In this document: positions 15,660 through 56,731 of the stretch, in pieces
Position numbering within the stretch: the stretch's first letter is position 1
Layout of the letters: each line of letters opens with the position of its first letter
DNA from: a virus
Lineage: Duplodnaviria > Caudoviricetes
DNA: 64,000 bases
Strand: one strand, 5' to 3'
Virus record (IMG/VR): IMGVR_UViG_3300028591_000079
Span: 32,001 to 96,000 of that record
Position numbers and translations under genes: made by a program
Notes under the pieces: generated by a model
Databases searched by the model: none
Told to the model about the DNA's origin: nothing
The model's input: only the letters and a program-made list of their open reading frames with translations

Positions 15660-16241
15660 TTAAGAGTAAAGCATAATTAGATTTTCTAGTGCACTCATAT
15701 CTAATTCTAAGACTTTATATTTACAGTTGAGTTGATTGGTTTTTATTTCAAGTCCTTCAGTCATCTTGGCCAAGGGATTTATTATTGATAACGCACCTAA
15801 TCTTCCAACATCTAAAAAAAGAGTATAATTATTTTTATTCTGGCTAAATACGGTTAATATACAGTCCTGCCACTTATATGTTTCGTTTATTGCGCCTGTT
15901 TCTGACATGTTGAATTTGTTCACAAACATGTTAGCAAGATACAATAAGAAATTTTTACGGTCTTTGAAGAAATTTAAACTTTGATTACAGAATGTTTCTA
16001 TTTTTTCTTCTGCAGTATCATCTTTCATTGATTGTCCATTTAAACTATTGAAGAATATATGATTAAGAGTTGATTCTACTATTTGAGTTGGTTTATTATC
16101 TACCATATAAAAAAAAGATAACCTATATACTTTCCATTGTTTATCATAGCCGAAAAAGCAATTGCAAGATGTACCGAAGTTTTTTCTTATCATTCGGTTT
16201 ATTTTTCTGGTTGTTTTGTTATAATTAAAATCTGTGGTCAT
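15660..16241 (-). CDS. hypothetical protein
   Basis: Coupled ORF; ends LENLIMLYS. Confidence 0.7.
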   Translation of the reverse strand: MTTDFNYNKTTRKINRMIRKNFGTSCNCFFGYDKQWKVYRLSFFYMVDNKPTQIVESTLNHIFFNSLNGQSMKDDTAEEKIETFCNQSLNFFKDRKNFLLYLANMFVNKFNMSETGAINETYKWQDCILTVFSQNKNNYTLFLDVGRLGALSIINPLAKMTEGLEIKTNQLNCKYKVLELDMSALENLIMLYS

Positions 16242-16534
16242 AAGTTTGTATATCTCTTATCTTTTTTCCAAATATTGGTTAGTTCTTCTTCAATATCATA
16301 TAAAGATCCTTCTAATGTCATTTTTTTGGTCACAGACACGTATTTCTTTATTGATTCAGGAAAGTAGTCTGATTTGTGTTTTATTGTTATTTTCCAACCA
16401 TTTTTGACTCTTTCTATTGAATCTACCCAGTTAAAGTTTTTGGGTGTTTGTTCTTCTACTTGTTCAATGATATACCCCAATAGTCCAATAGCCAATTTTG
16501 TTTCATTGAATTTAGGACATGGTTTTTCTGTCAT
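16238..16534 (-). CDS. hypothetical protein
   Basis: AAGGAG SD after promoter. Confidence 0.75.
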   Translation of the reverse strand: MTEKPCPKFNETKLAIGLLGYIIEQVEEQTPKNFNWVDSIERVKNGWKITIKHKSDYFPESIKKYVSVTKKMTLEGSLYDIEEELTNIWKKDKRYTNL

Positions 16535-16556
16535 AATATATTCTCCTTTTTGAAGT

Positions 16557-16584
16557 ATAATAGCATAATTAATTCTTACTTCAA
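16557..16584 (-). promoter_or_regulatory. phage promoter (AATTAA-spacer class)
   Basis: TTGAAG-TAAGAATTAATTATGC-TATTAT. Confidence 0.65.
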
Positions 16585-16845
16585 GGCATTTTCACAAACT
16601 TTTTTTATATAACCTATTGCTTTACTGTCTATATGCGTTACAAAATCTTTCGAATATGAAGTAACGTCTGATTGGATAACTTCATCAACACCCAAAGAGC
16701 TGAACAATGGAAAACTTCTAACCGTAAAGACTGGATATTGATTAACTTGGCTAGTAATATAATCATGAAACATATTACAGCTCACATGATCTTCAAACAA
16801 TGTGGGATGTTTATGTTTTATAAGATTTATATTTTCTTTATTCAT
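16576..16845 (-). CDS. hypothetical protein
   Basis: Coupled ORF. Confidence 0.6.
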   Translation of the reverse strand: MNKENINLIKHKHPTLFEDHVSCNMFHDYITSQVNQYPVFTVRSFPLFSSLGVDEVIQSDVTSYSKDFVTHIDSKAIGYIKKVCENALK

Positions 16846-18315: not shown

Positions 18316-18939
18316 TTATAAGAACTCCCATATTGTTTTGTTTTCAGACAATTTTTCAACATCTAAATCGTAGAACCAAATTGTGCTAAGATTTACCGCT
18401 TGTGATTTTTGTTTTTCATAACCTAATAATTCTAAAAATTTTATAAGTTTTCCAAGGTCAGAACATATACTTTCTCCGTATGGATTTATTGATATTGTTA
18501 ATTTATCGGCAGTATCTAAATAAAAATTATCCATATATCTAAAACAGCAACAATCAAAATCTATATAATCCAAAAAATTATAAATTTCTTTTAATGCTTT
18601 TAGTTTTTGTTCAAACTCTAATAATTCATTTTTTCTATTTGTTCCTTGCCAATCTCCAGAACCAAAAGAGAAGAAATAAGCACATGCCGATACTTGTCGT
18701 ATTGCCCTTTCTATTGCCTTCATTGCTTTGAGAATATATTCTTCATTTATTCTTGGACCCCAAAAATTACTACCTTTATCTATGTATAATTTTGCGGCCT
18801 TTGTGTTCAAAAACTCTTTTACATTATTTGCACTAATTGATACGCGTATATTTTGTCCTTTACCTTTGTTGCAAGCCTTTATAAAATGCTTACATAAAAC
18901 AAATCTTGGATCATTTAAATCTACTATATCCATTTTCAT
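18316..18939 (-). CDS. hypothetical protein
   Basis: Start overlaps upstream stop (ATGA). Confidence 0.7.
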   Translation of the reverse strand: MKMDIVDLNDPRFVLCKHFIKACNKGKGQNIRVSISANNVKEFLNTKAAKLYIDKGSNFWGPRINEEYILKAMKAIERAIRQVSACAYFFSFGSGDWQGTNRKNELLEFEQKLKALKEIYNFLDYIDFDCCCFRYMDNFYLDTADKLTISINPYGESICSDLGKLIKFLELLGYEKQKSQAVNLSTIWFYDLDVEKLSENKTIWEFL

Positions 18940-19247
18940 TTTAATATCTCCTCTAATACACACTTAGCAAAAAGATCTACATAATTTTCTGCCGCAACAT
19001 AGTTTTTTATATACCAAATTCCACCAGATAAGCTCAGAAAAAACCTTGAATCGTGTAATAAAATTTTATCCTTTTTCTTTTTTGGTTTTATTGTGTAATT
19101 TGAATATAACCCATCTGCAGTTATAAGACCTATTTGCCTAAAATAACAATGACCATCTTCAGAATATTTATCGGTCCCATCATCTATTATTTTGATGTAT
19201 CCTCCATATCTTTTTTTTACCAAAGATCTAAATTCTTCTATTTTCAT
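18936..19247 (-). CDS. orphan with C-terminal tail VLEEILK
   Basis: Coupled ORF, tail motif. Confidence 0.7.
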   Translation of the reverse strand: MKIEEFRSLVKKRYGGYIKIIDDGTDKYSEDGHCYFRQIGLITADGLYSNYTIKPKKKKDKILLHDSRFFLSLSGGIWYIKNYVAAENYVDLFAKCVLEEILK

Positions 19248-19524: not shown

Positions 19525-19552
19525 ATTTTATCATGTTTAATTATTATTTCAA
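19525..19552 (-). promoter_or_regulatory. phage promoter (AATTAAA-spacer class)
   Basis: TTGAAA-TAATAATTAAACATGA-TAAAAT. Confidence 0.7.
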
Positions 19553-19852
19553 CAATTCTTCTATAATTTTTTTCTTACCAATCAGCGTTATGTGTTTTCT
19601 GTTTCCAATGTCCCAGTTGCCTATGGCATACACAGATATCGGCCTTATCTTAATTGTTTCGTCTATATTTTGTGCCAATTCAAAGCTAAAAAAAGCCCAC
19701 TGTAATTCTTTTTTAGCAGAAAAAGAATTATAATATCTAACATAGTCTTTTTTATACCACCCACCTTCTGATTCTGAAAAAAATCTAGCCCCTTGTGTAT
19801 GTTTTCCCCAACAGGCTTTTGTAAAATGAAAAAGATGTGTTTGATTATTCAT
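19544..19852 (-). CDS. orphan with tail IIEELLK
   Basis: Tail motif. Confidence 0.7.
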   Translation of the reverse strand: MNNQTHLFHFTKACWGKHTQGARFFSESEGGWYKKDYVRYYNSFSAKKELQWAFFSFELAQNIDETIKIRPISVYAIGNWDIGNRKHITLIGKKKIIEELLK

Positions 19853-20166
19853 GATAATAATTTTTCCAATATTCCCTTGTCGGTTATTATGATGTTTTCA
19901 ATAATATGTGTAACACTTTCTTTTATTTTTTCTAATTCCAGAAACACACATTGTTTGCTTGGATTGAATATTTCATTGTTACCAATATCATAAAACGAAA
20001 ACATTCTACCGCTAAAATCAAAATTTCGAAATTCCAATGTTAAATATAAATCGAGAACTTCACCATTGCGCAACACAACTCTTGGATGGGCACCTTCTTT
20101 ATTTGGATCCATTGGATATGATATTCCTGCAATATTGTTTCTTTCTATAATAATCCCTTTTATCAC
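19849..20166 (-). CDS. orphan with tail ILEKLLS
   Basis: Tail motif; GTG start overlapping stop. Confidence 0.7.
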   Translation of the reverse strand: MIKGIIIERNNIAGISYPMDPNKEGAHPRVVLRNGEVLDLYLTLEFRNFDFSGRMFSFYDIGNNEIFNPSKQCVFLELEKIKESVTHIIENIIITDKGILEKLLS

Positions 20167-20555
20167 AATAAAAACTCCATTATTTTATTTATATTAGAAA
20201 CAAAACCAACAATCCTATTATCTTCCAACAACACAATAAACTTTTTTGGTTGTTCAAATTTTACATAGTCATAATCATCTTTTGCTATACTATTAAAACA
20301 CGATCCACTTTTATTTGTTATATACCAAGTTGTCGTTTTTTCGTTTACTTTCCATGTATCGCTTCTATTATAAAATTTTGTAAAAGCAGCCATTACTCCA
20401 TTACTATTAGAAAACCAAAACCATTTATCCATACTTAGTCCAGATTCCCAAGTGCAAAGCTTGCAACAAAAAACCCCCTCAATAGGTACAACCAAACAAG
20501 AAGTCCATCTATTTTTCCCATCTGTCATATTCCATATCCAATCGTATTTATCCAT
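20163..20555 (-). CDS. orphan with tail IMEFLL
   Basis: Tail motif. Confidence 0.7.
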   Translation of the reverse strand: MDKYDWIWNMTDGKNRWTSCLVVPIEGVFCCKLCTWESGLSMDKWFWFSNSNGVMAAFTKFYNRSDTWKVNEKTTTWYITNKSGSCFNSIAKDDYDYVKFEQPKKFIVLLEDNRIVGFVSNINKIMEFLL

Positions 20556-20558
20556 TTC

Positions 20559-20927
20559 TCACTCCAATAACATTTCTAATATTGTAACATGTGAATCTTT
20601 TGCTAATTTTGCATCGTACATATATAAAAAGTCTTCAAGAGCATTATTATAACTCATTGTTTTTCCACAAGTTTTCCAATCTGAACTTATATTTTCACCA
20701 GCATAAGTTGTATAATACATTACTTTTCTATTTTGGTTCATTGTTTTTATTGTTGGCCAAACTTTTCTTATGTGTGATTGTGGTAAATGTTCATAATTGT
20801 TGCTTCTTATAAAATCACCCTCCCACTTGTTACCATTAATATCAACCATAAACCTATTACCCATCTCGTCTTTCTCCCAATGGTCTATTTTTACATAATG
20901 CTTCCAAGATGTTAGTTTTGTCACCAT
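20559..20927 (-). CDS. orphan with tail ILEMLLE
   Basis: Tail motif; follows promoter. Confidence 0.7.
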   Translation of the reverse strand: MVTKLTSWKHYVKIDHWEKDEMGNRFMVDINGNKWEGDFIRSNNYEHLPQSHIRKVWPTIKTMNQNRKVMYYTTYAGENISSDWKTCGKTMSYNNALEDFLYMYDAKLAKDSHVTILEMLLE

Positions 20928-20943: not shown

Positions 20944-20971
20944 ATTCTATCATGTTTAATTCTTAACTCAA
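20944..20971 (-). promoter_or_regulatory. phage promoter (AATTAAA-spacer class)
   Basis: TTGAGT-TAAGAATTAAACATGA-TAGAAT. Confidence 0.7.
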
Positions 20972-21169
20972 CAACATTTCTAAAACTTCATCTACCCCTT
21001 TCCAATCATTATGAGGGTTTCTTGTCAAAATAGCTATTGTCATCTCACACAAACAGTCTCTAAGTAACCATTCTAATACAAAGCGTTTATCACCCAACTC
21101 CCTTCCTTGAGCTGCATACCAAACCATTTGTGTTATATCTTCTCCTGTTGTTGTTATTCTTCTAACCAT
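20963..21169 (-). CDS. orphan with tail VLEMLLS
   Basis: Tail motif; start uncertain. Confidence 0.6.
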   Translation of the reverse strand: MVRRITTTGEDITQMVWYAAQGRELGDKRFVLEWLLRDCLCEMTIAILTRNPHNDWKGVDEVLEMLLS

Positions 21170-21381
21170 TTTTCTATATCTTCTTTTTTTACTCTTTCTA
21201 CCCAAACCTCCCAGCAACAAGGAACATTGGTACTATCTTCTGTTTTTACCCAATACCCCGCTTTTTCAATATATCTTACATGTAGTCTTTCTTTCAATTC
21301 TTCTGTGAGCTCGACAAAAACATAATACCAATAACCATCGTATCTTGAATTAACTTTATATTTAGCTTTCTTTAAAATCAT
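21154..21381 (-). CDS. orphan, paralog of 21971-22213, tail IEKWLEE
   Basis: AKYKV..YD.Y.Y.VFV.L shared. Confidence 0.7.
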   Translation of the reverse strand: MILKKAKYKVNSRYDGYWYYVFVELTEELKERLHVRYIEKAGYWVKTEDSTNVPCCWEVWVERVKKEDIEKWLEE

Positions 21382-21656
21382 TTTAGTAACTCTTCTAATA
21401 TTTTTTCTATACCAACGCAAGTCTCTTTACAGTCTATTATGCTTATTATTCCTTCTGCTCTTTTTTTATCTACCAATGCCCAATTCTTCTTTTTTATTAG
21501 TGACAATGTGGTTTTTAGGTTTGGATTTGAATGATACAATGATGTTCTATATTGTATGCGATCAAGAGGAAAATTACTTATATACCATTCGCGAGTAGCT
21601 TTTCTTCCTGTTCCTTCTAAATATGTCTCACAATAAAGAAGCTCAATCAATTCCAT
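21378..21656 (-). CDS. orphan, paralog of 21687-21968, tail ILEELLK
   Basis: WAL....AE...SIID shared. Confidence 0.7.
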   Translation of the reverse strand: MELIELLYCETYLEGTGRKATREWYISNFPLDRIQYRTSLYHSNPNLKTTLSLIKKKNWALVDKKRAEGIISIIDCKETCVGIEKILEELLK

Positions 21657-21686: not shown

Positions 21687-21968
21687 TTATTTTAGTAGCT
21701 CCCTCAATATTAGATTTACTTTTATTATAGGACAACCTTCTCTATATTCATCATCAATTATACTTAAGGCTTCTGCATCTTCTTCTGGTATTAAAGCCCA
21801 ACCATTATACTCTCCATATTCCGCCAGTCGTCTTGTGTTAAATCGTAAAAAGCCATTTAAATTTCTATTTATAATATATACACCTTTCCCAGTATAATAT
21901 TCTATCACCGGCCTTGCTTCTATCCAGTTAGTTGTTTTCGTATAATAATAAAGCTTTACCAGTATCAT
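21687..21968 (-). CDS. orphan with tail ILRELLK
   Basis: Paralog of 21378-21656. Confidence 0.7.
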   Translation of the reverse strand: MILVKLYYYTKTTNWIEARPVIEYYTGKGVYIINRNLNGFLRFNTRRLAEYGEYNGWALIPEEDAEALSIIDDEYREGCPIIKVNLILRELLK

Positions 21969-21970
21969 TT

Positions 21971-22213
21971 TTATTCCAACCATTTATTTATTTGTCTATC
22001 TGTTACTTTATGTGTCAAATGCTCAAAACAATATCTCTCAAGGTTGTCTGGATTGGGCGCTTTCTCATCTACCCAAACCCAATAATCATCTAATTTTACA
22101 GCTTTTTTTACGCTCAACCAAGATTTTATATCATCATCCAAATCCACAAATACAAGATAAGTATAACAATCATATTCAGACCAAACCTTGTATTTTGCTT
22201 GTCTTATTGCCAT
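21971..22213 (-). CDS. orphan with tail INKWLE
   Basis: Paralog of 21154-21381. Confidence 0.7.
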   Translation of the reverse strand: MAIRQAKYKVWSEYDCYTYLVFVDLDDDIKSWLSVKKAVKLDDYWVWVDEKAPNPDNLERYCFEHLTHKVTDRQINKWLE

Positions 22214-22593
22214 CTGTTTTTACCATTTATTTTAGCTAATTCTGCTCTTGTTATTACTTTCAAATTACTTAACTCATTGTTCATAGGGTCTCCGTCTATA
22301 TGATAAATGACTTCTAACCTATCTAACTTTCTACCCAATTCTTTTTCCATCAGCCATTTAGCATAACTTACTCGCTTTTGATGCATATAGACTTTACCAT
22401 TACGACTTCTAATTGGTGTCTTTTCTTCACTAACACACACTAATTGATCTTTTCCTTGCATAACTTTACCAATATGTCTCTTAGATTCTGCATCTTCTTT
22501 AGTAAAACTTGTGCAATTGGCTCCCATATACCCAAACAGGCCTTTATTCCAAGTCTTATGCCCTTTTATAAATTGTCCACTATTAGTTTTCAT
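22204..22593 (-). CDS. HNH-family endonuclease
   Basis: GQFIKGHKTWNKG N-terminal motif; VIYHIDGDPMNNELSNL. Confidence 0.8.
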   Translation of the reverse strand: MKTNSGQFIKGHKTWNKGLFGYMGANCTSFTKEDAESKRHIGKVMQGKDQLVCVSEEKTPIRSRNGKVYMHQKRVSYAKWLMEKELGRKLDRLEVIYHIDGDPMNNELSNLKVITRAELAKINGKNRWQ

Positions 22594-23042: not shown

Positions 23043-23070
23043 ATTATACCAAATTTAATTATTATGTCAA
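23043..23070 (-). promoter_or_regulatory. phage promoter (AATTAAA-spacer class)
   Basis: TTGACA-TAATAATTAAATTTGG-TATAAT. Confidence 0.85.
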
Positions 23071-23393
23071 AACAACAGGCGCTCTAATAATTTTGACCTT
23101 TCTATTATTTTTCCTTCATAAACTCTACGATATAAAAAAGAATTTAGATCATTACTCTTTTTGTAAACTATCATTAAGTCTTCTTGTTTTATTTCAGCTC
23201 CAACTTTATATTCCATTCCATCTTTTAGTTTCAGTCCATTATTTGCATAGGTTGGTTCAGATTCTGTATGTTTACTACCTATACATTCCCATGATGATGT
23301 GTTTTCCCTTTCCCATACCAAATTATCTTCATCCACATAGGCTTTCATACGATCTATATACCTAACTATGTTCTTAATTCTGTATCCACTCAT
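23067..23393 (-). CDS. orphan with tail LLERLLF
   Basis: Tail motif. Confidence 0.7.
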   Translation of the reverse strand: MSGYRIKNIVRYIDRMKAYVDEDNLVWERENTSSWECIGSKHTESEPTYANNGLKLKDGMEYKVGAEIKQEDLMIVYKKSNDLNSFLYRRVYEGKIIERSKLLERLLF

Positions 23394-23518
23394 TTCAACC
23401 ACCAATCCAATACCAATTTTTCTAATTCTTCACTCAACCTTCCCATCTTCTTTGCATATATGATTGATCCAATATCCAAACTACCAAGAAAATGAGCCCA
23501 TATATCTTCTGTATTCAT
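23390..23518 (-). CDS. 42-aa orphan with tail VLDWWLK (not in ORF track)
   Basis: Manual translation MNTEDIWAHF...EKLVLDWWLK; stop overlaps next ATG. Confidence 0.6.
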   Translation of the reverse strand: MNTEDIWAHFLGSLDIGSIIYAKKMGRLSEELEKLVLDWWLK

Positions 23519-23599: not shown

Positions 23600-23917
23600 T
23601 TATTCTAACAACCTATCTATAATCTGTTCTGGCCCAAAATAAAAGTTCCAACCCCAATGACCGATACTTATTGTTCCATAGTAATCAAAACTCAAAATAC
23701 CATGTTGTACCGTATGATCTACTCCAACACCTACTAACAACCAAAAATCTGCAGGTGTCCAATCATATTTATCAAGATCATATTTTTCACATACACCATT
23801 ACCAATAACTTTTATTTCAGAGGCCGTCTCAAATACATCTCTATCAGACTTAACATATTTAAGCTCTGCAATATCTTTCTTTCTTATAATGGCTTTGACT
23901 TTTACTAATTTTATCAT
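23600..23917 (-). CDS. orphan with tail IIDRLLE
   Basis: Tail motif. Confidence 0.7.
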   Translation of the reverse strand: MIKLVKVKAIIRKKDIAELKYVKSDRDVFETASEIKVIGNGVCEKYDLDKYDWTPADFWLLVGVGVDHTVQHGILSFDYYGTISIGHWGWNFYFGPEQIIDRLLE

Positions 23918-24048
23918 TTCAACAGCTCTTCTAGTATAAAACCTGTATTGACGACCATTAAACTACCTGAGCTCTTCTCTTTGTTTTCCATACATATTAC
24001 CCAGAAACCAGGCTCCGTTGTTGCTCTTATACTTGTTATTGTATTCAT
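23914..24048 (-). CDS. 44-aa orphan with tail ILEELLK (not in ORF track)
   Basis: Manual translation MNTITSIRATTEPG...FILEELLK; ATGA overlaps at both ends. Confidence 0.7.
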   Translation of the reverse strand: MNTITSIRATTEPGFWVICMENKEKSSGSLMVVNTGFILEELLK

Positions 24049-24332
24049 TCTAACAAACTCCCAATTTCTTTTATTTGATCCAACCCATACCCCATCAAAA
24101 CCCTTCCAGGTACCTCTAATTCATTTCCATATTTTTTCAATTCTATTATAACATGCTCTTTACATTCTTCAAAATTAAAATCGCTACGTTGAAAACCAGT
24201 GGTCCCAAAAAATATCCACCAACGACCCCTAAATTTTATCATATGTGAGTTGTCTTCATCTAAAACATAGGCGGCTAATTTTTTATCTTTCTTCCAATAT
24301 ATCTTCCAAAATACTTTATAAACACGATTCAT
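24045..24332 (-). CDS. orphan with tail IGSLLE
   Basis: Tail motif. Confidence 0.7.
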   Translation of the reverse strand: MNRVYKVFWKIYWKKDKKLAAYVLDEDNSHMIKFRGRWWIFFGTTGFQRSDFNFEECKEHVIIELKKYGNELEVPGRVLMGYGLDQIKEIGSLLE

Positions 24333-24655
24333 CTTAGCCACCTATTGATTATTACACCCTTATCTTTTTCAGTTAGTTCATCATTTTCACTCATAAAATC
24401 CATATAATTACCATCCTCAAAATCAAAATACTCTAGGCAGTCTTCTAAACATCCCCTAAACAATTCTTTTCCACCAACTCTATAAACAACCCACCTATCC
24501 TCTTCGATTTTATGTTTATATGTACTACTCCAACGCTCTATTTCTTTGTATATTCCATTTTTCCATTTTTGAATTTTATTAGGTCCACCCAGTTCATTAG
24601 ATAAAACACACCAGCCATCACCCAATTCTTTCCAAATCCTTAACATCAAAATCAT
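24329..24655 (-). CDS. orphan with tail IINRWLR
   Basis: Tail motif; AAGGAGG SD. Confidence 0.7.
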   Translation of the reverse strand: MILMLRIWKELGDGWCVLSNELGGPNKIQKWKNGIYKEIERWSSTYKHKIEEDRWVVYRVGGKELFRGCLEDCLEYFDFEDGNYMDFMSENDELTEKDKGVIINRWLR

Positions 24656-24778: not shown

Positions 24779-25099
24779 TCATTTCAACAACTCTTCTATC
24801 ATTTCTTCAACATTAATCCATAAAGACTTTATTTCTCCTAATTTTTCTAACCAATCTCCAGTCTTTTCAATCGTAAACTCACAATAAATCAATGCATATT
24901 TGTTTGATACTGGTTTATATTTTCCTTCCCAAAACTTATTTCCAAGACCAACATTCCATCCTATATCATCTGTTTTTGGACTTACCCAAGATGTACCATC
25001 AACAGACCAATCCCATATCCATCTATTGTCTTCGGTCACAAAACCCTCCATTCCGTTTCTATTATCAAACACTCCAATACATTTTACAAGTAGATACAT
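24779..25099 (-). CDS. orphan with tail MIEELLK
   Basis: Tail motif. Confidence 0.7.
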   Translation of the reverse strand: MYLLVKCIGVFDNRNGMEGFVTEDNRWIWDWSVDGTSWVSPKTDDIGWNVGLGNKFWEGKYKPVSNKYALIYCEFTIEKTGDWLEKLGEIKSLWINVEEMIEELLK

Positions 25100-25180: not shown

Positions 25181-26041
25181 TTATCCTTTCTTTACGAGTT
25201 TCACCATGTTATCTAATTCCTCATAAGTTCCTTCAACGATTAAGCTTCCATACTCATTAGGTTTACCGCATATCGCCTCTATCCACTTCAATTCTTTATC
25301 CTCTTCTCCATGAAACAATTCCCAGTAATTAAATTCGACACGATATATTTCATTACCTAAATCTACCACTTGACAACAATTTCTGCCCAGTTTTTCTATA
25401 CCTTCATCTCCTTCTTGTAAAAATAATTTGGCAACTTTTACTTCTTTACTTGTTGATTCTATTTTATTTGTTATTTCTTTTATGGTTGATTCACTTACTA
25501 TTCCATCATAATCTGTTTCAATTTCATAATCATCCATCCAATTAAAGTTTATCAATCTGTAAGGAATACCATCTCTGCGATTCATTATAAGCTTTTCTTT
25601 TCCAATTTCTCCATCCAAAACTATATCAACACTTAAATTTGCCATCTCGTCATCTGAATCAACAAGAAGATCAATTTCAAATCCAACATGATATATTTCA
25701 CTTCTTTTGTTATATAATCTTCTCAAATACTTGCATACATCTTCTTCTTCAATAAAAACACCAATGTCACCTAAAAAACTGTCCACCCACTTGTTTATAA
25801 ATCCATCATCATAGTCTTTATTGTATGTTTTTTTCCCTCTTTTCAAATACTTACCCTCAAATCTGCCAAAAATTTTTAAATTCCATTCCAACACTTCCCT
25901 TAATGTAACATATATAAAACAATTATCTTGACCTTTAGTGTCCAGATCTACCCCAAAGAAATCTCCACAATCAAACTCTTTATCTCCAAAAACCTTCTTC
26001 TTCAAAATATCTATAACTTTTTCATACATATAACAACTCAT
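25181..26041 (-). CDS. 286-aa protein, paralog of 53854-54714
   Basis: Shared WVxSFL.DI, YLR.L.NK, AKLF, GTYEE...M..LVK. Confidence 0.8.
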   Translation of the reverse strand: MSCYMYEKVIDILKKKVFGDKEFDCGDFFGVDLDTKGQDNCFIYVTLREVLEWNLKIFGRFEGKYLKRGKKTYNKDYDDGFINKWVDSFLGDIGVFIEEEDVCKYLRRLYNKRSEIYHVGFEIDLLVDSDDEMANLSVDIVLDGEIGKEKLIMNRRDGIPYRLINFNWMDDYEIETDYDGIVSESTIKEITNKIESTSKEVKVAKLFLQEGDEGIEKLGRNCCQVVDLGNEIYRVEFNYWELFHGEEDKELKWIEAICGKPNEYGSLIVEGTYEELDNMVKLVKKG

Positions 26042-26205
26042 TTTAATACCTCTTCTAAATACCCTTCCAATGTTCTTGTTGCAATTACATAATCTTCACC
26101 AAACCGATTATAATACGTTACATACTTTGCCGGACCAGTTACCCACACAATTATATTTTTTCCGTTTCCCAATCCAGCTAAAAACTCTCCAACATATCCG
26201 TTCAT
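26038..26205 (-). CDS. 55-aa orphan with tail YLEEVLK (not in ORF track)
   Basis: Manual translation MNGYVGEFLAG...GYLEEVLK. Confidence 0.6.
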   Translation of the reverse strand: MNGYVGEFLAGLGNGKNIIVWVTGPAKYVTYYNRFGEDYVIATRTLEGYLEEVLK

Positions 26206-26371: not shown

Positions 26372-27100
26372 CTACCCCCTTACTAAATTTACCATTGTTT
26401 CTAATTCTTCAAAATCATCAAACTCTATTATTTTCCTACCATCTTTTTCTATTGCCAGTGTTTCTAATCTGTCCCCATTCCATTCATCGCCCACTAATTC
26501 TAAATAATTCTCGTGTAACTTATATTTCTTAATCTTTTTATAATACGAAACATCAATAAATAAATCCCATATAAATTTCCACCTCTTATAATACTCTAAT
26601 GTTCCCTTCTCACATAATCTATCTAATGCATCTAAACATTCTTCATTAAACGCATAAATACCATTCCCATAATCAGATCCTACGCCTAAAAACTCCCCTA
26701 TCCTTATCGCATCATCACTACTGTTTATCATCAAGCATATCCTATTCCCATCATGCCTCGCCCATATGTTTACCATACCGTAGTTCTTCAATATCTCTTC
26801 GTTCAATTCCACTCTCTTCTTAACCCAATCACCCATCTCTATCAATCTTTCATTTTTCTCCAAGATATCTATAGCGTCTGTGTTTCTTCCACTTATTATA
26901 TCTTCTACCATGCCACTTATACTATCATACTCCCCACAAAATTTCCCACATACATATAAATACCTACCATCCCCTACAACAACCTCATTACAAAAACCAA
27001 ATACCTCCTCCCCAAAATAATAAGTCCCATTACAATAAACTATCCCACTCTGTGACTCTAACCATTTTCTTCCTAACTCTAAATGCTCTTCTATCGTCAT
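26372..27100 (-). CDS. 242-aa protein, probable paralog of 51457-52194
   Basis: Ends FEELETMVNLVRG. Confidence 0.75.
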   Translation of the reverse strand: MTIEEHLELGRKWLESQSGIVYCNGTYYFGEEVFGFCNEVVVGDGRYLYVCGKFCGEYDSISGMVEDIISGRNTDAIDILEKNERLIEMGDWVKKRVELNEEILKNYGMVNIWARHDGNRICLMINSSDDAIRIGEFLGVGSDYGNGIYAFNEECLDALDRLCEKGTLEYYKRWKFIWDLFIDVSYYKKIKKYKLHENYLELVGDEWNGDRLETLAIEKDGRKIIEFDDFEELETMVNLVRG

Positions 27101-29687: not shown

Positions 29688-29716
29688 ATTATAGGATGGT
29701 TTAGGATGGGTGTCAA
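29688..29716 (-). promoter_or_regulatory. perfect sigma70 promoter
   Basis: TTGACA-17-TATAAT. Confidence 0.85.
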
Positions 29717-49920: not shown

Positions 49921-49996
49921 TAGTCCTTTTGAGTCTCTGAAGTCCTTTTGAGTTCATGCAGTCTTTTGTGGTCTCTGGGGCTGGATCCTTTGAGTC
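49921..49996. repeat. helically phased AGTC box array
   Basis: AGTC at 49922, 49932, 49941, 49960, 49993; variants at 49951, 49970. Confidence 0.7.
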
Positions 49997-50158: not shown

Positions 50159-50419
50159 ATGAGTAGAAGAAAAGAATTTTTATTATGGGGTGTAAAAAAG
50201 TCTAGGAATGGTATATATTGGAGTGATGGGTTAGGATTATCTTTTATTGATGGTGGTTTGATGACGGAATATGATGGTAAGTATGATGGATCAGGGAAAG
50301 ACATTGGTTGTTGCTTAGTAGAGATGGGGTATTGGTTAGGTGGTAGGACAAAGGTTGATATAAATGTAGCTGGTAAAAAGGAGTTATTGTTTTATTTATT
50401 GAAGAAAGCAAAGGTATAG
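50159..50419 (+). CDS. orphan, tail LLFYLLKKAKV
   Basis: GAGGAG SD. Confidence 0.7.
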   Translation: MSRRKEFLLWGVKKSRNGIYWSDGLGLSFIDGGLMTEYDGKYDGSGKDIGCCLVEMGYWLGGRTKVDINVAGKKELLFYLLKKAKV

Positions 50420-50422
50420 TAT

Positions 50423-50722
50423 ATGAGAAGGGTATTAGTAAGATATTATGGTTGTGTTTTAGAGGGTGGTAAGAAGAAGTATTTTATTTATAGTAATGAC
50501 GAGAGTAAGACTGGGAGGATTTACATATATGTTGGTGGTTATATTGGAATGGGAGACAATGGGATAAGGTTTGGCAGTGGTTATAGTTATGTATTAGGGG
50601 GAGTGGAGAAAAAAGATGGGTGGTTATATGTTGTTTTATTTGGGAGTGGTAAGGGTGGTAAGTATAGTATAGCCAACATAATAGAGAGTGATAAGTATAA
50701 ATTGACTGCTTTGTTAGGGTAA
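50423..50722 (+). CDS. orphan, tail LTALLG
   Basis: Tail motif. Confidence 0.7.
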   Translation: MRRVLVRYYGCVLEGGKKKYFIYSNDESKTGRIYIYVGGYIGMGDNGIRFGSGYSYVLGGVEKKDGWLYVVLFGSGKGGKYSIANIIESDKYKLTALLG

Positions 50723-50726
50723 TAAG

Positions 50727-51050
50727 ATGAGGGATTATGACACTTTGAATCTTTTTTGGGAATATGATGCGATACAGGACTGGGGTAAAGGCGGTTGTTG
50801 GTATCATTTAATCAAGGGAACAAAGAAGCAAGGTATATGGTATGAATGTGATAGTTGGATATTATGGAAAGACGGGAGAGGATATATAGGTTATTGTTTT
50901 AGAAATGAACATAAAAGGGCCAGCAAAACAAATAGAGTAGTATGTGAGATGAAGAGTGGAATAATTGGTGGATACTTAGTTGATAATGGGGACTTTTGTG
51001 ATGGTGGTTATGGCAAGAAAGAATATATAGATTGGTTGTTGGGGGGATAA
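50727..51050 (+). CDS. orphan, tail YIDWLLGG
   Basis: Tail motif. Confidence 0.7.
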   Translation: MRDYDTLNLFWEYDAIQDWGKGGCWYHLIKGTKKQGIWYECDSWILWKDGRGYIGYCFRNEHKRASKTNRVVCEMKSGIIGGYLVDNGDFCDGGYGKKEYIDWLLGG

Positions 51051-51054
51051 TGAG

Positions 51055-51426
51055 ATGATGATGAGGTGTTTGATTAGGTATATTGGGTATTTTGATGATC
51101 ACGACAGGCACAGGCATTATATTTGTAAAAGGATTAATATTTATAGGCATTTATTTGGGTATGGATGTTTAGTTGATAATGATCTTATAAGTTTTGGTGC
51201 TAATGGTGAATGGATATATGATGATTTAATAAGTAACAAGGATTTTGAGCGTGGATGTCCGACAGGGAGAAAGAATGAAATAATTAATAAGGTAGATGGA
51301 TGGGTGTGTGTATGTTATAATATTGAAGATGAGGGCGGCTGCAATGTTTCAACTGGGGAAGTAAGTTATTTTAAGTCTGATATTTTTGACAAAGAAGAGG
51401 ATATTTTAGAATATTTATTGGCTTGA
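51055..51426 (+). CDS. orphan, tail ILEYLLA
   Basis: Tail motif. Confidence 0.7.
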   Translation: MMMRCLIRYIGYFDDHDRHRHYICKRINIYRHLFGYGCLVDNDLISFGANGEWIYDDLISNKDFERGCPTGRKNEIINKVDGWVCVCYNIEDEGGCNVSTGEVSYFKSDIFDKEEDILEYLLA

Positions 51427-51450
51427 AGAAGTAATTAAATATGGTAAAAT
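51423..51450 (+). promoter_or_regulatory. phage promoter (AATTAAA-spacer class)
   Basis: TTGAAG-AAGTAATTAAATATGG-TAAAAT; ATG 7 nt downstream, possibly leaderless mRNA. Confidence 0.7.
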
Positions 51451-51456
51451 AGTAAT

Positions 51457-52194
51457 ATGGTGATAAATGAAGAAAAACATATTGTAAAGCATAATGAAGA
51501 CTTAGGATGGCTATTTGGTTTACCTGAGGGTGTTTTGTATGTATATTATGGTGGTTTGATATTTTTGAATTACGGTTGGTTTCACGAGATGGATAATTGT
51601 GGCAGGCCTGTAATAAACAACATGACGATTAGTGAAGTTGTAAGATTAATAAAAAGTGATACGGGATTAGTAGAGAGGATAGAATGTTTGAGTAAGGGCG
51701 TTATAAGAGACTATTATGACGCAAATGAGATGTTATCAAAGCACAAGAAATTATTAAGCAAGTACGGAATAAAAGAATTAGAGCCTGTTGTTGATGGACA
51801 TTCTTTTGTTATTAAGTTGTGGTTTGAAGATTTTGAAAACGACAGTATGTTTAGGTTTTATTTTAGGACCAGTGGGAGTTATATGGATGGAAGGGTATTA
51901 TTAAAGCTTTTGGGTAGGATAGTTGACAAAGGTGAAGACGGGGTAAAAGAATACAATAAGTGGTTAGAATTTGCACGGTTATTGAAGAAATTTGATATTG
52001 AGATTGGGTGGTTTAATTATTTTAGGTTAGAAGGTGATAATATAGTATTTAAGGGAAAAGACTGGAGATTGGATTGGTGTACTGATTTTGAAAAGAAGCT
52101 GATAAGTATATGTGAGAAGGATAAGGGTAATAATTATAGGATGAGGTGTGGTAGTATTGAAGAATTTGATGCATTATTGGAGTTATTAACGTGA
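51457..52194 (+). CDS. 245-aa protein, probable paralog of 26372-27100
   Basis: Ends EEFDALLELLT. Confidence 0.75.
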   Translation: MVINEEKHIVKHNEDLGWLFGLPEGVLYVYYGGLIFLNYGWFHEMDNCGRPVINNMTISEVVRLIKSDTGLVERIECLSKGVIRDYYDANEMLSKHKKLLSKYGIKELEPVVDGHSFVIKLWFEDFENDSMFRFYFRTSGSYMDGRVLLKLLGRIVDKGEDGVKEYNKWLEFARLLKKFDIEIGWFNYFRLEGDNIVFKGKDWRLDWCTDFEKKLISICEKDKGNNYRMRCGSIEEFDALLELLT

Positions 52195-52541
52195 TATATA
52201 AAAACACTGGAGCTGTTGTAGATTTTAGCAGTGGTTATCCTGAGACTGTTGGGAGACATTGGATTTATTGTAACAGGAATGAAAGAAGGATAACTGAATT
52301 CAAGAACCTATATAGTTCAAATGGGATAAATTGGTATGCTATTGGTTTTGAGAGTTGTGTTTCTGAGGATGTTGGAGAAAATGATGCAATAGAAAAGTGT
52401 AGTTTATGGGAATTATTTAAATGTAAGAAGGTTTTTGATGATGCTGGATTTGTAAGTTTTTGTCATGGTTTTGAGAACATATTTGACATTTTGGATAACA
52501 TAGAAGATAAAAGTGCGATATTGGAAGGGTTATTGAGATGA
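52191..52541 (+). CDS. orphan, tail ILEGLLR
   Basis: Tail motif. Confidence 0.7.
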   Translation: MIYKNTGAVVDFSSGYPETVGRHWIYCNRNERRITEFKNLYSSNGINWYAIGFESCVSEDVGENDAIEKCSLWELFKCKKVFDDAGFVSFCHGFENIFDILDNIEDKSAILEGLLR

Positions 52542-53236
52542 ATTGGGAAAAAATTGTAAAATATATTGAATCAGGGTATTATAAGAAAGATTTGAAGGCA
52601 GCCAAGGAAATTAGCGGATGGCTGGATGTAAGTTATAGGTTTGATTTATGCTCTGGGTGTATTATAGTTGGCGAAAATAATAGAGTTGATATTTTTGATA
52701 CGATGTTTAGGGTTGAAAATTATAAAATAGAACAAATAGAAAAACTGAAAGAGGTTATAGAAGGTTGGGATGATGTAATAAAAGAAATAAAGATTATAAT
52801 GGGGAACCAAGAATATCAAAAACTAATTGAGAAAAAAAGAGGGCATATAGAATTTAATAGGTATGCTAGTGATGGGCGAACTTTAGATTATATAGAATTG
52901 AAATGGGATAAGTCTTTGGTTGATTATATGTTGGGTTTGGATATTATTGGTAATGATTCTATAATTGAGCAGACGGAGGCTATAAACAATATTGATGATG
53001 AATTATATGCAGTTGGGGCGGTTTTTTGTAATCATTTGAAATCAGTGCTCTTTAGTAGATATTTTATATTAAAGAAAGACCCTGGAACTGGCAAATATTG
53101 TATAAAGTTTGAGTATAGCGATAAATTAAAATTGGAGAGTGTAGATCAAAAGCTTAGTATGTTGTTTGGTAATAGGAATAAGTTGTATGTAAAAAATGCA
53201 GAAGAGTTAGATGTTTTGATGGGGTTGATAGAATAA
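52538..53236 (+). CDS. orphan, tail EELDVLMGLIE
   Basis: Long-form tail. Confidence 0.75.
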   Translation: MNWEKIVKYIESGYYKKDLKAAKEISGWLDVSYRFDLCSGCIIVGENNRVDIFDTMFRVENYKIEQIEKLKEVIEGWDDVIKEIKIIMGNQEYQKLIEKKRGHIEFNRYASDGRTLDYIELKWDKSLVDYMLGLDIIGNDSIIEQTEAINNIDDELYAVGAVFCNHLKSVLFSRYFILKKDPGTGKYCIKFEYSDKLKLESVDQKLSMLFGNRNKLYVKNAEELDVLMGLIE

Positions 53237-53545
53237 ATGTTAGAGCGTATACCATTTATTTTTAAAATACTAGAAGCCTATAAGGATGAAACCTATGGGA
53301 ATTATTGGCTAAGGGTAAAATTGACTTTAGACGGATCAGAGCACGTAATGAGTTTGACAGAAGAAGATAAGCGTGTAATATTTTTTCAGAGCACAACCAC
53401 AGAATCCTCTCAAGAAGTGTTAGAAAAAGCAAGAAAAGACTTTAGAAAATTGGAAAAATTGAGAACCAGAAAGAATGATTTTACAATAGAAAGCACAGGT
53501 AAGGCAAAAAAAATCATAAAGGTATTAGAGGAGTTGTTGGTATGA
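53237..53545 (+). CDS. orphan, tail VLEELLV
   Basis: Tail motif. Confidence 0.7.
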   Translation: MLERIPFIFKILEAYKDETYGNYWLRVKLTLDGSEHVMSLTEEDKRVIFFQSTTTESSQEVLEKARKDFRKLEKLRTRKNDFTIESTGKAKKIIKVLEELLV

Positions 53546-53814
53546 TAATTTTTATAAGAGATGTTTTAGATATAGAGTTTGATAGTGAATTAAATGTTGT
53601 TTGGTATGTTATAAGAAATATCCATCAAACCCAAGTCACAGAATATATTAAAGTTTCATACAGCAGCAATCATCCTTTATTATATTGTCCACTTTCTATG
53701 GATTATAACCCCCCAGCAAAATCGTTATCTAAAAAAGTTATTATTGTATTAGATGGTGAAAATGGATATATTGAAGATTTTTATATGTGGCTGGAAAAAA
53801 TCTTGTCAAACTAA
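53542..53814 (+). CDS. orphan, tail WLEKILSN
   Basis: Tail motif. Confidence 0.7.
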   Translation: MIIFIRDVLDIEFDSELNVVWYVIRNIHQTQVTEYIKVSYSSNHPLLYCPLSMDYNPPAKSLSKKVIIVLDGENGYIEDFYMWLEKILSN

Positions 53815-53853: not shown

Positions 53854-54714
53854 ATGGAAATAAAAGATAAAATTTTAGAAATATTGATTTTTATGACTTT
53901 TGGAAATGATCCTAAGTATTTGTTTTCTGTTTCAAATATTGAAGATAATGCTAAAAGTTGTTATATTGGTATTTCTAATGTTTTATGGTATAATTCAGAT
54001 GTTTGGGGTAATGCTAATGGTAAGTTTATAGAAAATGGCAGACTTTCTTATAAAGATGAATATGAACAATTTTGTAAAGACTGGGTAGAAAGTTTTTTGA
54101 GCGATATAAGAGTTCGTTTGTTTTATCCTAATTCTGTATATAAATATTCTAGTGTGTATGATTATTTGAGAAAGTTACACAATAAATATGTTGCAAGCAT
54201 TGATTTAAATGCAAAATTTGAAAGAGAATTTCCAGAATTATATAGCCTTTGTAATTTTGTTTTTGATGTTTGTGGTAATGTTGGAGAAGAAACTGTTGGT
54301 GTTTTTAATGTTGGAAGAGAAAGTCCATTGTATTTATTAGATGATTATGAGTGGCTTGAACACGAAAAAATAATCAAAATAGATGAAAATGGTTGTGTTG
54401 ATCTTGGAAGCTTTTATCAGTTTATACAAAGACTAGAAGATAATAAAGATAAAATTCAATTAGCAAAATTATTTAATGATTATGCAGGAGAAAACGTAAC
54501 ATGTAGTAAAAGAATCGTAAAGCTTGATGGTGGCGTATATGAGTTTTCTTTTTTGAGTTGGGATCTGTGGAAAAATAAAGAAATAGAATGGCTAGAACAG
54601 ATAGGAGAAATAAAAAAAGAGCCTGGGTATTTTACTTCGTTTACTAATTTGGTTATAACTGGAACATATGAAGAAATTGAAACTATGTTGGAACTTGTAA
54701 AAGGTGGAAAATAA
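53854..54714 (+). CDS. 286-aa protein, paralog of 25181-26041
   Basis: Ends GTYEEIETMLELVKGGK. Confidence 0.8.
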   Translation: MEIKDKILEILIFMTFGNDPKYLFSVSNIEDNAKSCYIGISNVLWYNSDVWGNANGKFIENGRLSYKDEYEQFCKDWVESFLSDIRVRLFYPNSVYKYSSVYDYLRKLHNKYVASIDLNAKFEREFPELYSLCNFVFDVCGNVGEETVGVFNVGRESPLYLLDDYEWLEHEKIIKIDENGCVDLGSFYQFIQRLEDNKDKIQLAKLFNDYAGENVTCSKRIVKLDGGVYEFSFLSWDLWKNKEIEWLEQIGEIKKEPGYFTSFTNLVITGTYEEIETMLELVKGGK

Positions 54715-54716
54715 AG

Positions 54717-55418
54717 ATGATGTTTATAAATGTTCTCGTTTTTGTTGTAACTTTTGGTGTTTGTTTTTATATTGCAAAAAGAGATAAAAGAAATAGAAAC
54801 ATAAAAGCAACTTCGGCAAAAATCATGGCAGTAATAGTGGACATGGCTTACCACGGAGACGAATTTGCAAGTTGTTTAAGTATAGATGATCTTATTATTG
54901 ATCTAAAAGTAAAGGCTAGATATGACTTTTTAGATTATTTTGAATGGGATAAAAAATTGACAATTGACAGCGAAGATTCCAGTGCGTTTTGGAAAAAGTA
55001 TGAAGAAGAAAAAAGAAGGTTCAAATCAGATAGAAGATATAAAATATACAAACTCTTTCTAAAAAATCTAACCCGTCATGGGAAAATTATTGTTTTAGAT
55101 GATGGTAGTGTTTATTTGGTTGTTTATAAATACTATTATAATCCTGGTGGAGTGGTGTTGAATTATACATCTTGGCCTAATTCAGCTACTTGTATTGCTT
55201 TAGGCGGCGGTGGAGGAGGAGGCGGTTTTTATTATTTAAATGCGCCAGATTTGAAAAGGAATGACAAATTGAAATGTGAAGGGTTTGAAAAAATAAGACA
55301 AATATGGCACAATACAATAGAAGAAAGAACACACACAATATTTATAATCAAAGAAAACGAGATAGATGATTTTTATAGTATGTGTGAGCTAATATGTGGA
55401 GAAGAACTATCATGGTAA
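54717..55418 (+). CDS. membrane-anchored protein with poly-Gly tract
   Basis: N-terminal TM; ALGGGGGGGGF. Confidence 0.7.
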   Translation: MMFINVLVFVVTFGVCFYIAKRDKRNRNIKATSAKIMAVIVDMAYHGDEFASCLSIDDLIIDLKVKARYDFLDYFEWDKKLTIDSEDSSAFWKKYEEEKRRFKSDRRYKIYKLFLKNLTRHGKIIVLDDGSVYLVVYKYYYNPGGVVLNYTSWPNSATCIALGGGGGGGGFYYLNAPDLKRNDKLKCEGFEKIRQIWHNTIEERTHTIFIIKENEIDDFYSMCELICGEELSW

Positions 55419-55933
55419 TAAAAGAGCAAAATAAAAAAAGTAAAGTATGGTTTGTGGTGGCATGTGAAGAAGAATTTTATATGCCAGATGTTAATATTGT
55501 TTATACTGGAGTTGGTAAGGTAAGAGCTACAATGGCTACACAACACATTATAGACAAATATCAACCAGAAAAAATTATAAATATTGGGACTGCTGGTTGT
55601 ATTAGTGAGTCTTTATGCTTCAATGTTTTTCGTATTGGTAAGATTGTTGAAAGAGATTATGATACAAAAGATGGTAAAATCAATGAAATAGTCTTGGATG
55701 GCAATGTTGTTTTGGGCACCGGAGATAGCTTTGTGGAAGATTGGACTGGTTTGAATTTTTCTTTAGTAGATATGGAAGGGTATGCTGTTGGTTATGTATG
55801 TAAAGAAAATAATATAAAGTTCGAATGTTATAAATATGCAAGTGATACGGGAAATATGGAAAGTTGGGAAAAAAGTTTAGAAGGATGCAATAAAACATTT
55901 GTGGATCTAATTAAAAGCAGTAAAATAGGATAA
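55412..55933 (+). CDS. MTA/SAH nucleosidase-like nucleoside phosphorylase family protein
   Basis: TGVGKVRA, INIGTAG, TGDSFV, VDMEGYA, KYASD. Confidence 0.85.
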   Translation: MVIKEQNKKSKVWFVVACEEEFYMPDVNIVYTGVGKVRATMATQHIIDKYQPEKIINIGTAGCISESLCFNVFRIGKIVERDYDTKDGKINEIVLDGNVVLGTGDSFVEDWTGLNFSLVDMEGYAVGYVCKENNIKFECYKYASDTGNMESWEKSLEGCNKTFVDLIKSSKIG

Positions 55934-56731
55934 ATGAAAAAAGCTATAAATATTTTTGATCTAATAGAAGAAGTAAACAAGGACTTGGGAGAGGACTTGT
56001 TGTTTGCTGTTGTACCAGAAAATGATATTAGTGTTTATGTTATGGTTGCAGATAAAAAAATTGGTAAACAACAAAAACTAATAATAAGCTCAAAATATGA
56101 TATGTTTACCAAAAAAGATGATATACTACGCGCTAAAAAAAGAATTGTAAGTGTTTTGATTCCTTTTGGTTTTATATCTTTAGCAAATCCATATGAACAA
56201 TTTCTATCAAAGGCAAAACAACAAGTGAGTAAAATTAGAAACTTCTCAAAAACAAAAGATTATTTAGAATCCAGATATGGCATAGAATTTGGTCATTATG
56301 CTTGTATGGGAAATTCTTTAGATTGTTTTGTTGTTTTTCCAAAATTAGAGTGTAGAATGAATCCAATGTTTAAGTTTACCATGTATTATAGTCTTTTATT
56401 TGATGGTGATAAGATAAGCGAAAAAAGTTTGAAATCTTATTGTAGAAAAATGGATAAAGTAATAACGAGAATGAAATGTTTGTCTGCGGCTTTTGATAAT
56501 TGTGAGTTGATGTGGAATGGTAAAAACTTTTATAAACACTGTACAATAAAAAGAAGTGGTTTTGGAGATTGGATTATAAAGTTTCCGTATATTGATAAGT
56601 ATTTTGCTGCTCAAGGCATCAATGATATAAAAAAACTGATAAAAATATATCACTATAAAGACACAGACTATTGTATATGGAGAGGATCAACACCAGAAGA
56701 ATTTACTACAATGAGGGAATTACTGAAATGA
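55934..56731 (+). CDS. orphan, tail EEFTTMRELLK
   Basis: Long-form tail. Confidence 0.75.
   Translation: MKKAINIFDLIEEVNKDLGEDLLFAVVPENDISVYVMVADKKIGKQQKLIISSKYDMFTKKDDILRAKKRIVSVLIPFGFISLANPYEQFLSKAKQQVSKIRNFSKTKDYLESRYGIEFGHYACMGNSLDCFVVFPKLECRMNPMFKFTMYYSLLFDGDKISEKSLKSYCRKMDKVITRMKCLSAAFDNCELMWNGKNFYKHCTIKRSGFGDWIIKFPYIDKYFAAQGINDIKKLIKIYHYKDTDYCIWRGSTPEEFTTMRELLK

Follow-up and report, generated by a model that had tools for sequence, protein, structure and literature searches.

A predicted C-terminal helix shared by orphan proteins of two gene blocks in an uncultured jumbo phage is a candidate interaction module

Results and Discussion

Genes of the two blocks

We analyzed a 64,000-nucleotide stretch of viral DNA (the window; Duplodnaviria, Caudoviricetes; IMG/VR record IMGVR_UViG_3300028591_000079), in which two blocks of small orphan genes encode proteins that end in a common hydrophobic C-terminal tail. 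The window covers bases 32001-96000 of one 231,064-bp contig with a G+C content of 29-36%. Judged by sequence, the source is an uncultured jumbo myovirus because the 231-kb contig encodes a tail sheath and a prohead protease and lacks any close relative in a set of 50,697 deposited phage genomes; block DNA and proteins gave no match to these records by megablast or tblastn. Related contigs are metagenomic and include JGI sample 3300028887. Genes were called by a simple open reading frame (ORF) and codon usage procedure, which yielded 329 genes genome-wide, and one was added by hand. Fifty of these fall in the two blocks and 280 lie elsewhere in the 231-kb genome. The left block (W15660-28601, where W denotes window position) is on the minus strand and the right block (W50159-56731) on the plus strand, with a central module (W30113-49313, minus strand) between them. 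Block genes are also named by strand (m, minus; p, plus) and window start, as in m25181 and p53854.

An original prediction, made from the sequence, held that about 34 mostly unrelated orphan proteins share the tail. Every C-terminus that it quoted (19 short tails on the left, 6 on the right, and 6 of a longer form) is present at the gene concerned. Clear carriers number 31 block genes, 25 short-form and 6 long-form, against the predicted 34 or so; about five further tails (W15660, W16576, W16838, W18316 and W50159) are borderline. The carriers of the left block are listed below with lengths in amino acids (aa); L029 and L030 are related phage lineages.

27922..28251, minus: 109-aa orphan; tail WLEVLMK
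26372..27100, minus: 242-aa orphan, relatives in L030; long-form tail EELETMVNLVRG
26038..26205, minus: 55-aa ORF; tail YLEEVLK
25181..26041, minus: 286-aa orphan m25181, paralogue of W53854 (E 1e-29); long-form tail EELDNMVKLVKKG
24779..25099, minus: 106-aa orphan m24779, modelled as beta-rich, closing helix 97-105; tail MIEELLK
24329..24655, minus: 108-aa orphan; tail IINRWLR
24045..24341, minus: 98-aa orphan, orthologues in L029 and L030; tail IGSLLE
23914..24048, minus: 44-aa ORF, 35-aa orthologue in L029 (45% identity); tail ILEELLK
23600..23917, minus: 105-aa orphan, orthologues in L029 and L030; tail IIDRLLE
23390..23518, minus: 42-aa ORF; tail VLDWWLK
23067..23405, minus: 112-aa orphan, followed by a consensus promoter; tail LLERLLF
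21971..22213, minus: 80-aa orphan, one of a 7-member family that includes W21154 and proteins of L029 and L030; tail INKWLE
21687..21983, minus: 98-aa orphan, L029 orthologue with the same tail; tail ILRELLK
21378..21656, minus: 92-aa orphan; tail ILEELLK
21154..21420, minus: 88-aa orphan; tail IEKWLEE
20963..21220, minus: 85-aa orphan, downstream gene uncoupled; tail VLEMLLS
20559..20927, minus: 122-aa orphan; tail ILEMLLE
20163..20555, minus: 130-aa orphan; tail IMEFLL
19849..20166, minus: 105-aa orphan; tail ILEKLLS
19544..19852, minus: 102-aa orphan, downstream gene uncoupled; tail IIEELLK
18936..19247, minus: 103-aa orphan, L030 orthologue ends VLEDMLK; tail VLEEILK

The carriers of the right block are:

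50423..50722, plus: 99-aa orphan; tail LTALLG
50727..51050, plus: 107-aa Cys/Trp/Gly-rich orphan; tail YIDWLLGG
51055..51426, plus: 123-aa orphan, downstream gene uncoupled; tail ILEYLLA
51457..52194, plus: 245-aa orphan; long-form tail EEFDALLELLT
52191..52541, plus: 116-aa orphan; tail ILEGLLR
52538..53236, plus: 232-aa orphan; long-form tail EELDVLMGLIE
53237..53545, plus: 102-aa orphan, orthologue 28% identical overall that keeps the tail (VIEELLV); tail VLEELLV
53542..53814, plus: 90-aa orphan; tail WLEKILSN
53854..54714, plus: 286-aa orphan p53854, predicted local distance difference test score (pLDDT) 85.7, closing helix 272-283; long-form tail EEIETMLELVKGGK
55934..56731, plus: 265-aa orphan; long-form tail EEFTTMRELLK

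The most constrained member is the protein encoded at 50727..51050, which is 92-93% identical to its orthologues, as against 24-78% for neighbouring block genes. Whatever the blocks do, this protein might be an invariable part of it.

Enrichment of the tail in the blocks

Motifs were counted when they ended 0-2 residues before the stop codon, and expectations were taken from the frequency of the same motif at internal positions. The predicted motif, [IL]ExLL, ends 11 of the 50 block proteins (expected 0.05) and none of the 280 others (expected 0.05). A core motif, [ILVM][ED]x[LIVMW]L, was found in 19/50 block proteins (expected 0.2) versus 0/280 others (expected 0.7; Fisher p = 9e-18), and a loose hydrophobic-x-x-hydrophobic-hydrophobic pattern in 27/50 (expected 1.9) versus 10/280 (expected 7.8). 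Central-module proteins had been said largely to lack the tail; the core motif is indeed absent from W30113-49313, and the tail is restricted to the two blocks. It is also missing from the distal third of the left block (W15660-18303), which encodes small membrane-like and other proteins. No copies of the motif were found at domain boundaries inside larger proteins, and the literature searched contained no description of it.

Selection at the protein level

The same C-termini could in principle be a by-product of DNA, with the motif arising where signals for the following gene (Shine-Dalgarno, ATGA overlap and -35 TTG) are read in frame. We therefore aligned 27 tails on the second Leu (position 0) and computed relative entropy for each nucleotide column. 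Information in the tail codons is three-periodic, reaching 1.68 bits at codon positions 1 and 2 and only 0.18-0.86 bits, near background, at position 3; at two tail positions the second codon base is T in 27/27. Glu at -3 is coded GAA 13 times and GAG 4 times. This residue does not reflect a Shine-Dalgarno GAG because its GAG share, 24%, equals that of block gene bodies. Leu codons were predicted to vary, and those at -4, -1 and 0 are a mixture of TTA, TTG, CTA and CTG. The peptide ILEELLK, for example, is encoded by ATA TTA GAA GAG TTA CTA AAA at W21378 and by ATA CTA GAA GAG CTG TTG AAA at W23914, with four synonymous differences.

Gene coupling gives a similar picture. Outside the blocks, the core tail occurs at 0/147 gene ends where the following gene overlaps or is no more than 15 nt away. 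Inside the blocks, the counts are 11/25 for gene ends that overlap, 2/10 for close ones, 5/11 for intermediate ones (16-60 nt) and 1/4 for distant ones; its frequency is about equal with and without a coupled downstream gene. The uncoupled tails that had been singled out at W19544, W20963, W23067 and W51055 are real, each being followed by a 30-46-nt gap with an extended -10 promoter-like site, the -35 of which overlaps only the last Leu codon or the stop.

DNA signals do leave traces. Immediately after Leu-Leu, K, E, R or S is frequent, with an NNA codon where there is an ATGA overlap; at -2, Glu is coded GAG in 7/9 cases versus 24% in gene bodies; the final Leu is TTG in 14/25 versus 30% in bodies; and the -35 boxes of the four internal promoter-like sites just described reach the tail. 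These effects are confined to positions -2, 0 and +1. The influence of DNA signals is real but marginal, accounting for the last residue, one GAG and some TTG codons and leaving positions -5, -4, -3 and -1 untouched. A check on the Shine-Dalgarno, ATGA and -35 constraints had been set beforehand, and tail enrichment is not explained by them. The claim of protein-level selection is thus borne out by codon-position information, unbiased Glu -3 codons, the 0/147 coupled ends elsewhere and conservation among orthologues (below), and from these sequence comparisons we regard such selection on the shared C-terminal helix as established.

Anatomy and predicted structure of the tail

Position statistics were compiled from one representative of each sequence family (30 families). 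Leu occupies position 0 in 28/30 and position -1 in 24/30 representatives, and position -4 is I, L or M. Position -3, a mostly charged and partly solvent-facing position, is acidic in 80%, whereas position -2 is D or E in 37%. Position -5, which lies outside the search pattern, is hydrophobic in 83% versus a background of 43%. Position -9 is cap-like, with G, D, T, S, N or P in 60% versus 29%; positions -10 to -12 are weakly strand-like, and there is no conservation beyond -13. Leu-Leu is followed by variable residues, most of them charged (K, E, R), with a single K or R at the end. The tail pattern can be summarized as a cap (G/D/S/T/N/P), 3-4 residues, hydrophobic-hydrophobic-Glu/Asp-x-Leu-Leu, then 0-3 variable residues. 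The long form, [ST]-x-E-E-[FLI]-x-x-[ML]-h-x-L-h (h, hydrophobic), is the same element with one additional turn.

The modelled unit is a strand, a cap and an amphipathic helix of 2.5-3.5 turns with a hydrophobic stripe at i, i+1, i+4 and i+5 and one conserved acidic flank. AlphaFold2 models were obtained for two carriers. That of m24779 (five-sequence alignment; pLDDT 73.9, predicted template modelling score (pTM) 0.64) has a beta-rich body with a fold closed by a DSSP helix at 97-105, and that of p53854 (ten-sequence alignment; pLDDT 85.7, pTM 0.77) is mixed alpha/beta, with a strand at 263-270 followed by a DSSP helix at 272-283. In these models the tail is a short C-terminal amphipathic alpha-helix of ~9-12 residues, LxxLL-like, that follows a beta-strand. 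Neither model gave a convincing match to PDB folds (no Foldseek hit at E <= 0.001), and the best VIA-align Z scores were 4.5 (RNA polymerase alpha N-terminal domain, 66 residues) and 4.0. A likeness to the C-terminal domain of T4 MotA (Foldseek E 0.15, Z 3.6) was not above noise and was discarded. ESM Atlas held no usable look-alike of p53854.

Conservation among related phages

At least five related phage lineages (L023-L028, L029, L030, L044, L043 and G001) retain the tails in their syntenic blocks, with syntenic right blocks in L023-L028 and L044 and left blocks in L029 and L030. Examples include IIEELLR, ILEELLK, LALEWLLK, IAKELLR, VLEELLK, NILEKLLK, IVEELLR, WLEKLLEG and AILEGLLS. Several tail-bearing families of the relatives have no BLAST homologue in the window, and W51055, W52191 and W53542 have none in the relatives. 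Gene content, as far as sequence can tell, turns over and the tail stays. All block proteins of the window and its relatives cluster into 95 families, 40 of which carry the tail.

Comparison of 13 independent orthologue pairs gave 55% identity for the last 9 residues versus 39% for the body (Wilcoxon p = 0.004). The 44-aa W23914 product and its 35-aa orthologue end FILEELLK and WVLEELLK, respectively, with LEELLK in common, and the most conserved segment of the 10-member p53854 family is GTYEE..M..L. Homologues of p53854 (38-64% identical) and m25181 (35-51%) occur only in metagenomes. In the more distant G001, with a major capsid protein 69% identical, the syntenic block is an 11-member paralogous family of ~155-aa proteins ending ..LPxDxFxEhhxLLG, which is the long form. 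A still more distant relative, G004 (231.6 kb), has no tails (1 core match in 301 genes) and no C-depleted blocks.

Relationship of the protein bodies

Pfam and PHROGs searches with all 50 block proteins gave no match for any tail carrier; the only block genes with known families encode HNH_3 (W22204) and PNP_UDP_1 (W55394), both tail-less. The HNH_3 endonuclease gene (22204-22593, minus strand) lies inside the left block and occupies the same place in L029 and L030.

Carriers had been described as having mostly unrelated bodies. This holds at the level of BLAST, hidden Markov model (HMM) and HH profile comparison, and fails for the BLAST paralogue groups m25181/p53854 (1e-29) and m21154/m21971 (2e-14), some weaker pairs, and possibly p53854-p55934. 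With the last 14 residues trimmed, 287 profile-profile comparisons revealed no significant body similarity between families, the best pair other than within G001 reaching 15% probability. Untrimmed, the p53854 and p55934 families gave an HH probability of 42% over the C-terminal 107 columns. HMM iteration from m25181 and p53854 recruited no additional block protein, and an HMM of the G001 family matched no window protein. A HMMER search of 1.84 billion representatives with the p53854 profile returned 9 clusters, all of the same family and without a bridge to others, and the G001-family profile had 6 matches among 5.8 billion proteins. IMG/VR peptide scans with m25181, the AAA_5 ATPase of the central module and p50727 found nothing.

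Comparison with known systems

The original prediction likened the tails to those of T4 proteins that dock on the gp45 clamp. T4 gp43, gp55 and gp33, otherwise unrelated, carry highly similar, interchangeable hydrophobic C-terminal peptides that serve one hub (PMC2988020), binding the gp45 ring at a hydrophobic patch or a subunit interface (PMC2988020). The likeness is that of unrelated phage proteins sharing a hydrophobic C-terminal epitope. T4, however, has a handful of such proteins with known function, as opposed to 31 orphans with a helical, acidic, LxxLL-like motif. A clamp consensus (T4 Leu-Asp-Phe-Leu-like; bacterial QL[SD]LF or QLxLxL) is present in 0/31 tails, in which Phe is rare. 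PF00712 (DnaN) had no match in the 231-kb genome with controls working, and PF09116 (gp45) had none there with a control set that held no true positive. The clamp analogy therefore survives only as a principle of interchangeable C-terminal epitopes.

Other systems resemble the tails in part. Many tails contain LExLL or IExLL, and the stripe lies in helical conformation in both models, as in LxxLL docking helices, which are short Leu-x-x-Leu-Leu stripe helices with charged flanks. LxxLL (nuclear-receptor) boxes are eukaryotic and usually internal motifs in disordered regions, whereas the phage helix comes after a strand at the C-terminus and belongs to the fold in the models. The ankyrin/PRANC (F-box-like) proteins of poxviruses have evident whole-protein homology and the SCF ligase as partner. 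They, too, come from tandem, fast-evolving genes and end in a small conserved C-terminal element, which there links variable bodies to one machine; in the phage, bodies are mostly unalignable and the module is only ~10 residues. Tandem arrangement and a shared terminal strand-cap-helix are also what a lineage-specific expansion would display. PeSL cassettes, found in the hyperplastic regions of T4-type phages, are conserved as DNA (promoter and stem-loop) between ORFan genes. The shared trait is a repeated element at boundaries of small early orphan genes in plastic regions, but here the peptide is conserved and the nucleotides are not: third codon positions are near background and no conserved sequence follows downstream. 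The acidic character of the tail sets it apart from cationic membrane helices of the MinD/FtsA type. Degrons of the ssrA type depend on the last residues and a free carboxylate, whereas Leu-Leu is here followed by 0-5 variable, mostly charged residues.

Regulatory sites and base composition of the blocks

Promoter-like sites and tandem leader units accompany the blocks:

29688..29716, minus: perfect TTGACA-17-TATAAT promoter-like site upstream of the left block, right after a terminator-like hairpin (W29754-29783)
23043..23070, minus: internal 12/12 promoter-like site with TG extension, its -35 spanning the W23067 stop codon
28935..28985, minus: three tandem AGTCYTTTTGRAGTC-like units, period 23 nt, in the left-block leader
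49922..49978, plus: three tandem AGTCYTTTTGRAGTC-like units, period 19 nt, in the right-block leader

Extended -10 sites lie in intergenic gaps inside the blocks. The AGTCYTTTTGRAGTC-like units stand in the sense of transcription in both leaders and may serve as a common operator or RNA element through which the two blocks are regulated together.

Promoter-proximal genes of three transcription units have a coding strand with only 3-7% C and 25-35% G. These are window 24000-28600 (minus), window 50159-53236 (plus) and genome 22539-23664 (plus), ~9 kb before the window; C climbs to 10-15% toward the distal ends of the units. All three codon positions are affected, and the encoded proteins are poor in Pro, Gln, Ala and Thr. 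The depletion recurs in tail-bearing relatives and is absent from the tail-less G004. Elsewhere, equally C-poor genes are limited to the pair at genome 22539-23664, which have long-form-like tails, and a 53-aa ORF at W12119. C-poor, G-rich RNA would presumably lack Rho-utilisation sites.

Function of the tail

The tail marks a clade-specific, fast-evolving, promoter-proximal and strongly C-depleted gene set in three transcription units. These are probably early or host-takeover genes, early expression being a surmise from their promoters. We favor a reading in which the helix is a common interaction or docking module, with diverse bodies presenting the same hydrophobic stripe and one conserved acidic residue; the tail would plug into a groove of one shared partner, phage or host. 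We put its probability at roughly 45%. It is favored because residue identities, including that of the partly exposed acidic residue, are kept across ~40 unalignable families, and because the tail survives gene replacement. Docking and a hub are what we infer from this pattern. A broader version, in which the helix is an address tag by which one hub, of host or phage, collects the whole promoter-proximal (early) orphan proteome, is doubtful. A search for the hub by phylogenetic profile (shared with tail-bearing G001, absent from tail-less G004) left 63 candidates, too many to single one out.

Several observations weigh against an interaction module. No partner was identified. The tail helix has the highest or near-highest pLDDT of the chain (86-91 in m24779, ~94 in p53854), which in a model is expected of a helix packed on its own beta-sheet and atypical of a free docking peptide. 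Because confidence is high at the very C-terminal end, the monomer models suggest that the helix lies on the protein's own sheet. Closing helices of this sort can also swing out and dock, and the models would fit a structural as well as a docking role. Between 0 and 5 residues separate the motif from the C-terminus, and the tail is degenerate in some orthologues. Early expression is read from sigma-70-like matches, which as a class are not above shuffles in this AT-rich DNA. Lastly, since the G001 block is a single paralogous family by sequence, common descent alone could explain sharing of the tail.

Common descent is the core of a second explanation, by which the blocks are tandem duplicates of one deeply diverged paralogous superfamily whose strand-turn-helix ending completes each protein's own core and has no common partner. 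The tandem arrays of similar-sized genes, the two demonstrable paralogue groups and the 107-column similarity of p53854 to p55934 agree with it, as do the 11-member G001 family with its long-form tail, the confident placement of the helix after the last strand in both models, and two traits common to the tails, a cap at -9 and a weakly strand-like, hydrophobic character from -10 to -12. The trimmed bodies, however, yielded nothing significant, the G001-family HMM does not reach the window, and the two modelled bodies are unlike one another (beta-rich, 106 aa, versus mixed alpha/beta, 286 aa). Retention of Glu -3 and Leu-Leu over 40 families, when all else has decayed, would also be unusual for a purely structural helix. 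Descent from one strongly diverged superfamily is possible, because the family profiles are shallow; as a full account of the tail we think it somewhat unlikely.

We consider it improbable that the helices instead associate among themselves, in pairs or bundles, and thereby assemble block proteins into homo- or hetero-oligomers. The i, i+1, i+4, i+5 stripe is that of short coiled coils and helical bundles, and dozens of co-expressed proteins would carry it; yet ~2.5 turns is short for a stable coiled coil, and positive evidence is lacking. Complex prediction for an m24779 homodimer scored 0.12 versus a mark of 0.42, which speaks neither for nor against.

Slighter still is the chance that the tail acts as a timer or degron, through which an unfoldase or protease (the phage two-ring AAA and M16 proteins, or host Clp/Lon) clears the early set together. 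Hydrophobic C-terminal peptides are a common class of bacterial degron, and relatives encode a Peptidase_M16 and a two-AAA-domain protein 3-7 kb downstream of the right block. The variable, usually charged residues that follow Leu-Leu, 0-5 in number, do not suit such a signal, and G001, whose tails are all long-form, has these AAA and M16 genes as well. A DNA by-product as main cause of the motif is refuted by the codon-position information together with the codon and coupling counts, and we give it almost no credence.

No part of phage genomes is less well understood than the orphan early genes. If ~31 orphans (~40 families in the clade) share one selected interaction module, a single tail pull-down could name their common partner, whose identity would open a way to the function of all of them. 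Should the helix prove to have a structural role alone, the blocks would represent a multigene family in which nothing but the last ten residues is still recognizable. The tail is also a simple sequence marker by which, in these phages, genuine small genes, even those of 35-55 aa, can be told from noise.

Neighbouring features

Between the promoter-like site at 29716->29688 and the first left-block gene lies ~1.1 kb (28602-29688, minus strand) without a convincing ORF. Its first part is C/T-rich with many AGTC words and has no Rfam match; Rfam detected tRNAs only. The divergent region between the central module and right block contains a 76-nt direct repeat (49460-49535 and 49629-49704; 79% identical) with a TTGACA/TTTACA word in each copy; its 3' part occurs a third time, in shorter form, at 49847-49871. 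Adjoining this region are genes for a MoxR-like AAA_5 ATPase and a DUF2201 (VWA-type) partner (43928-47206, minus strand), and downstream of the right block are those for an M16 peptidase and a two-AAA-domain ATPase (62173-64000, plus strand). Both sets are conserved in relatives and were considered as possible hubs. A tRNA cluster occupies 58763-59074 and 60181-60347 (plus strand), where Rfam finds six tRNAs and ARAGORN four, the extras being at 58841-58911 and 60181-60252. At the other end of the window, a run of genes at 500-11104 (plus strand) matches aminotransferase, Nol-like carbamoyltransferase and radical-SAM families and may encode a sugar or base modification pathway.

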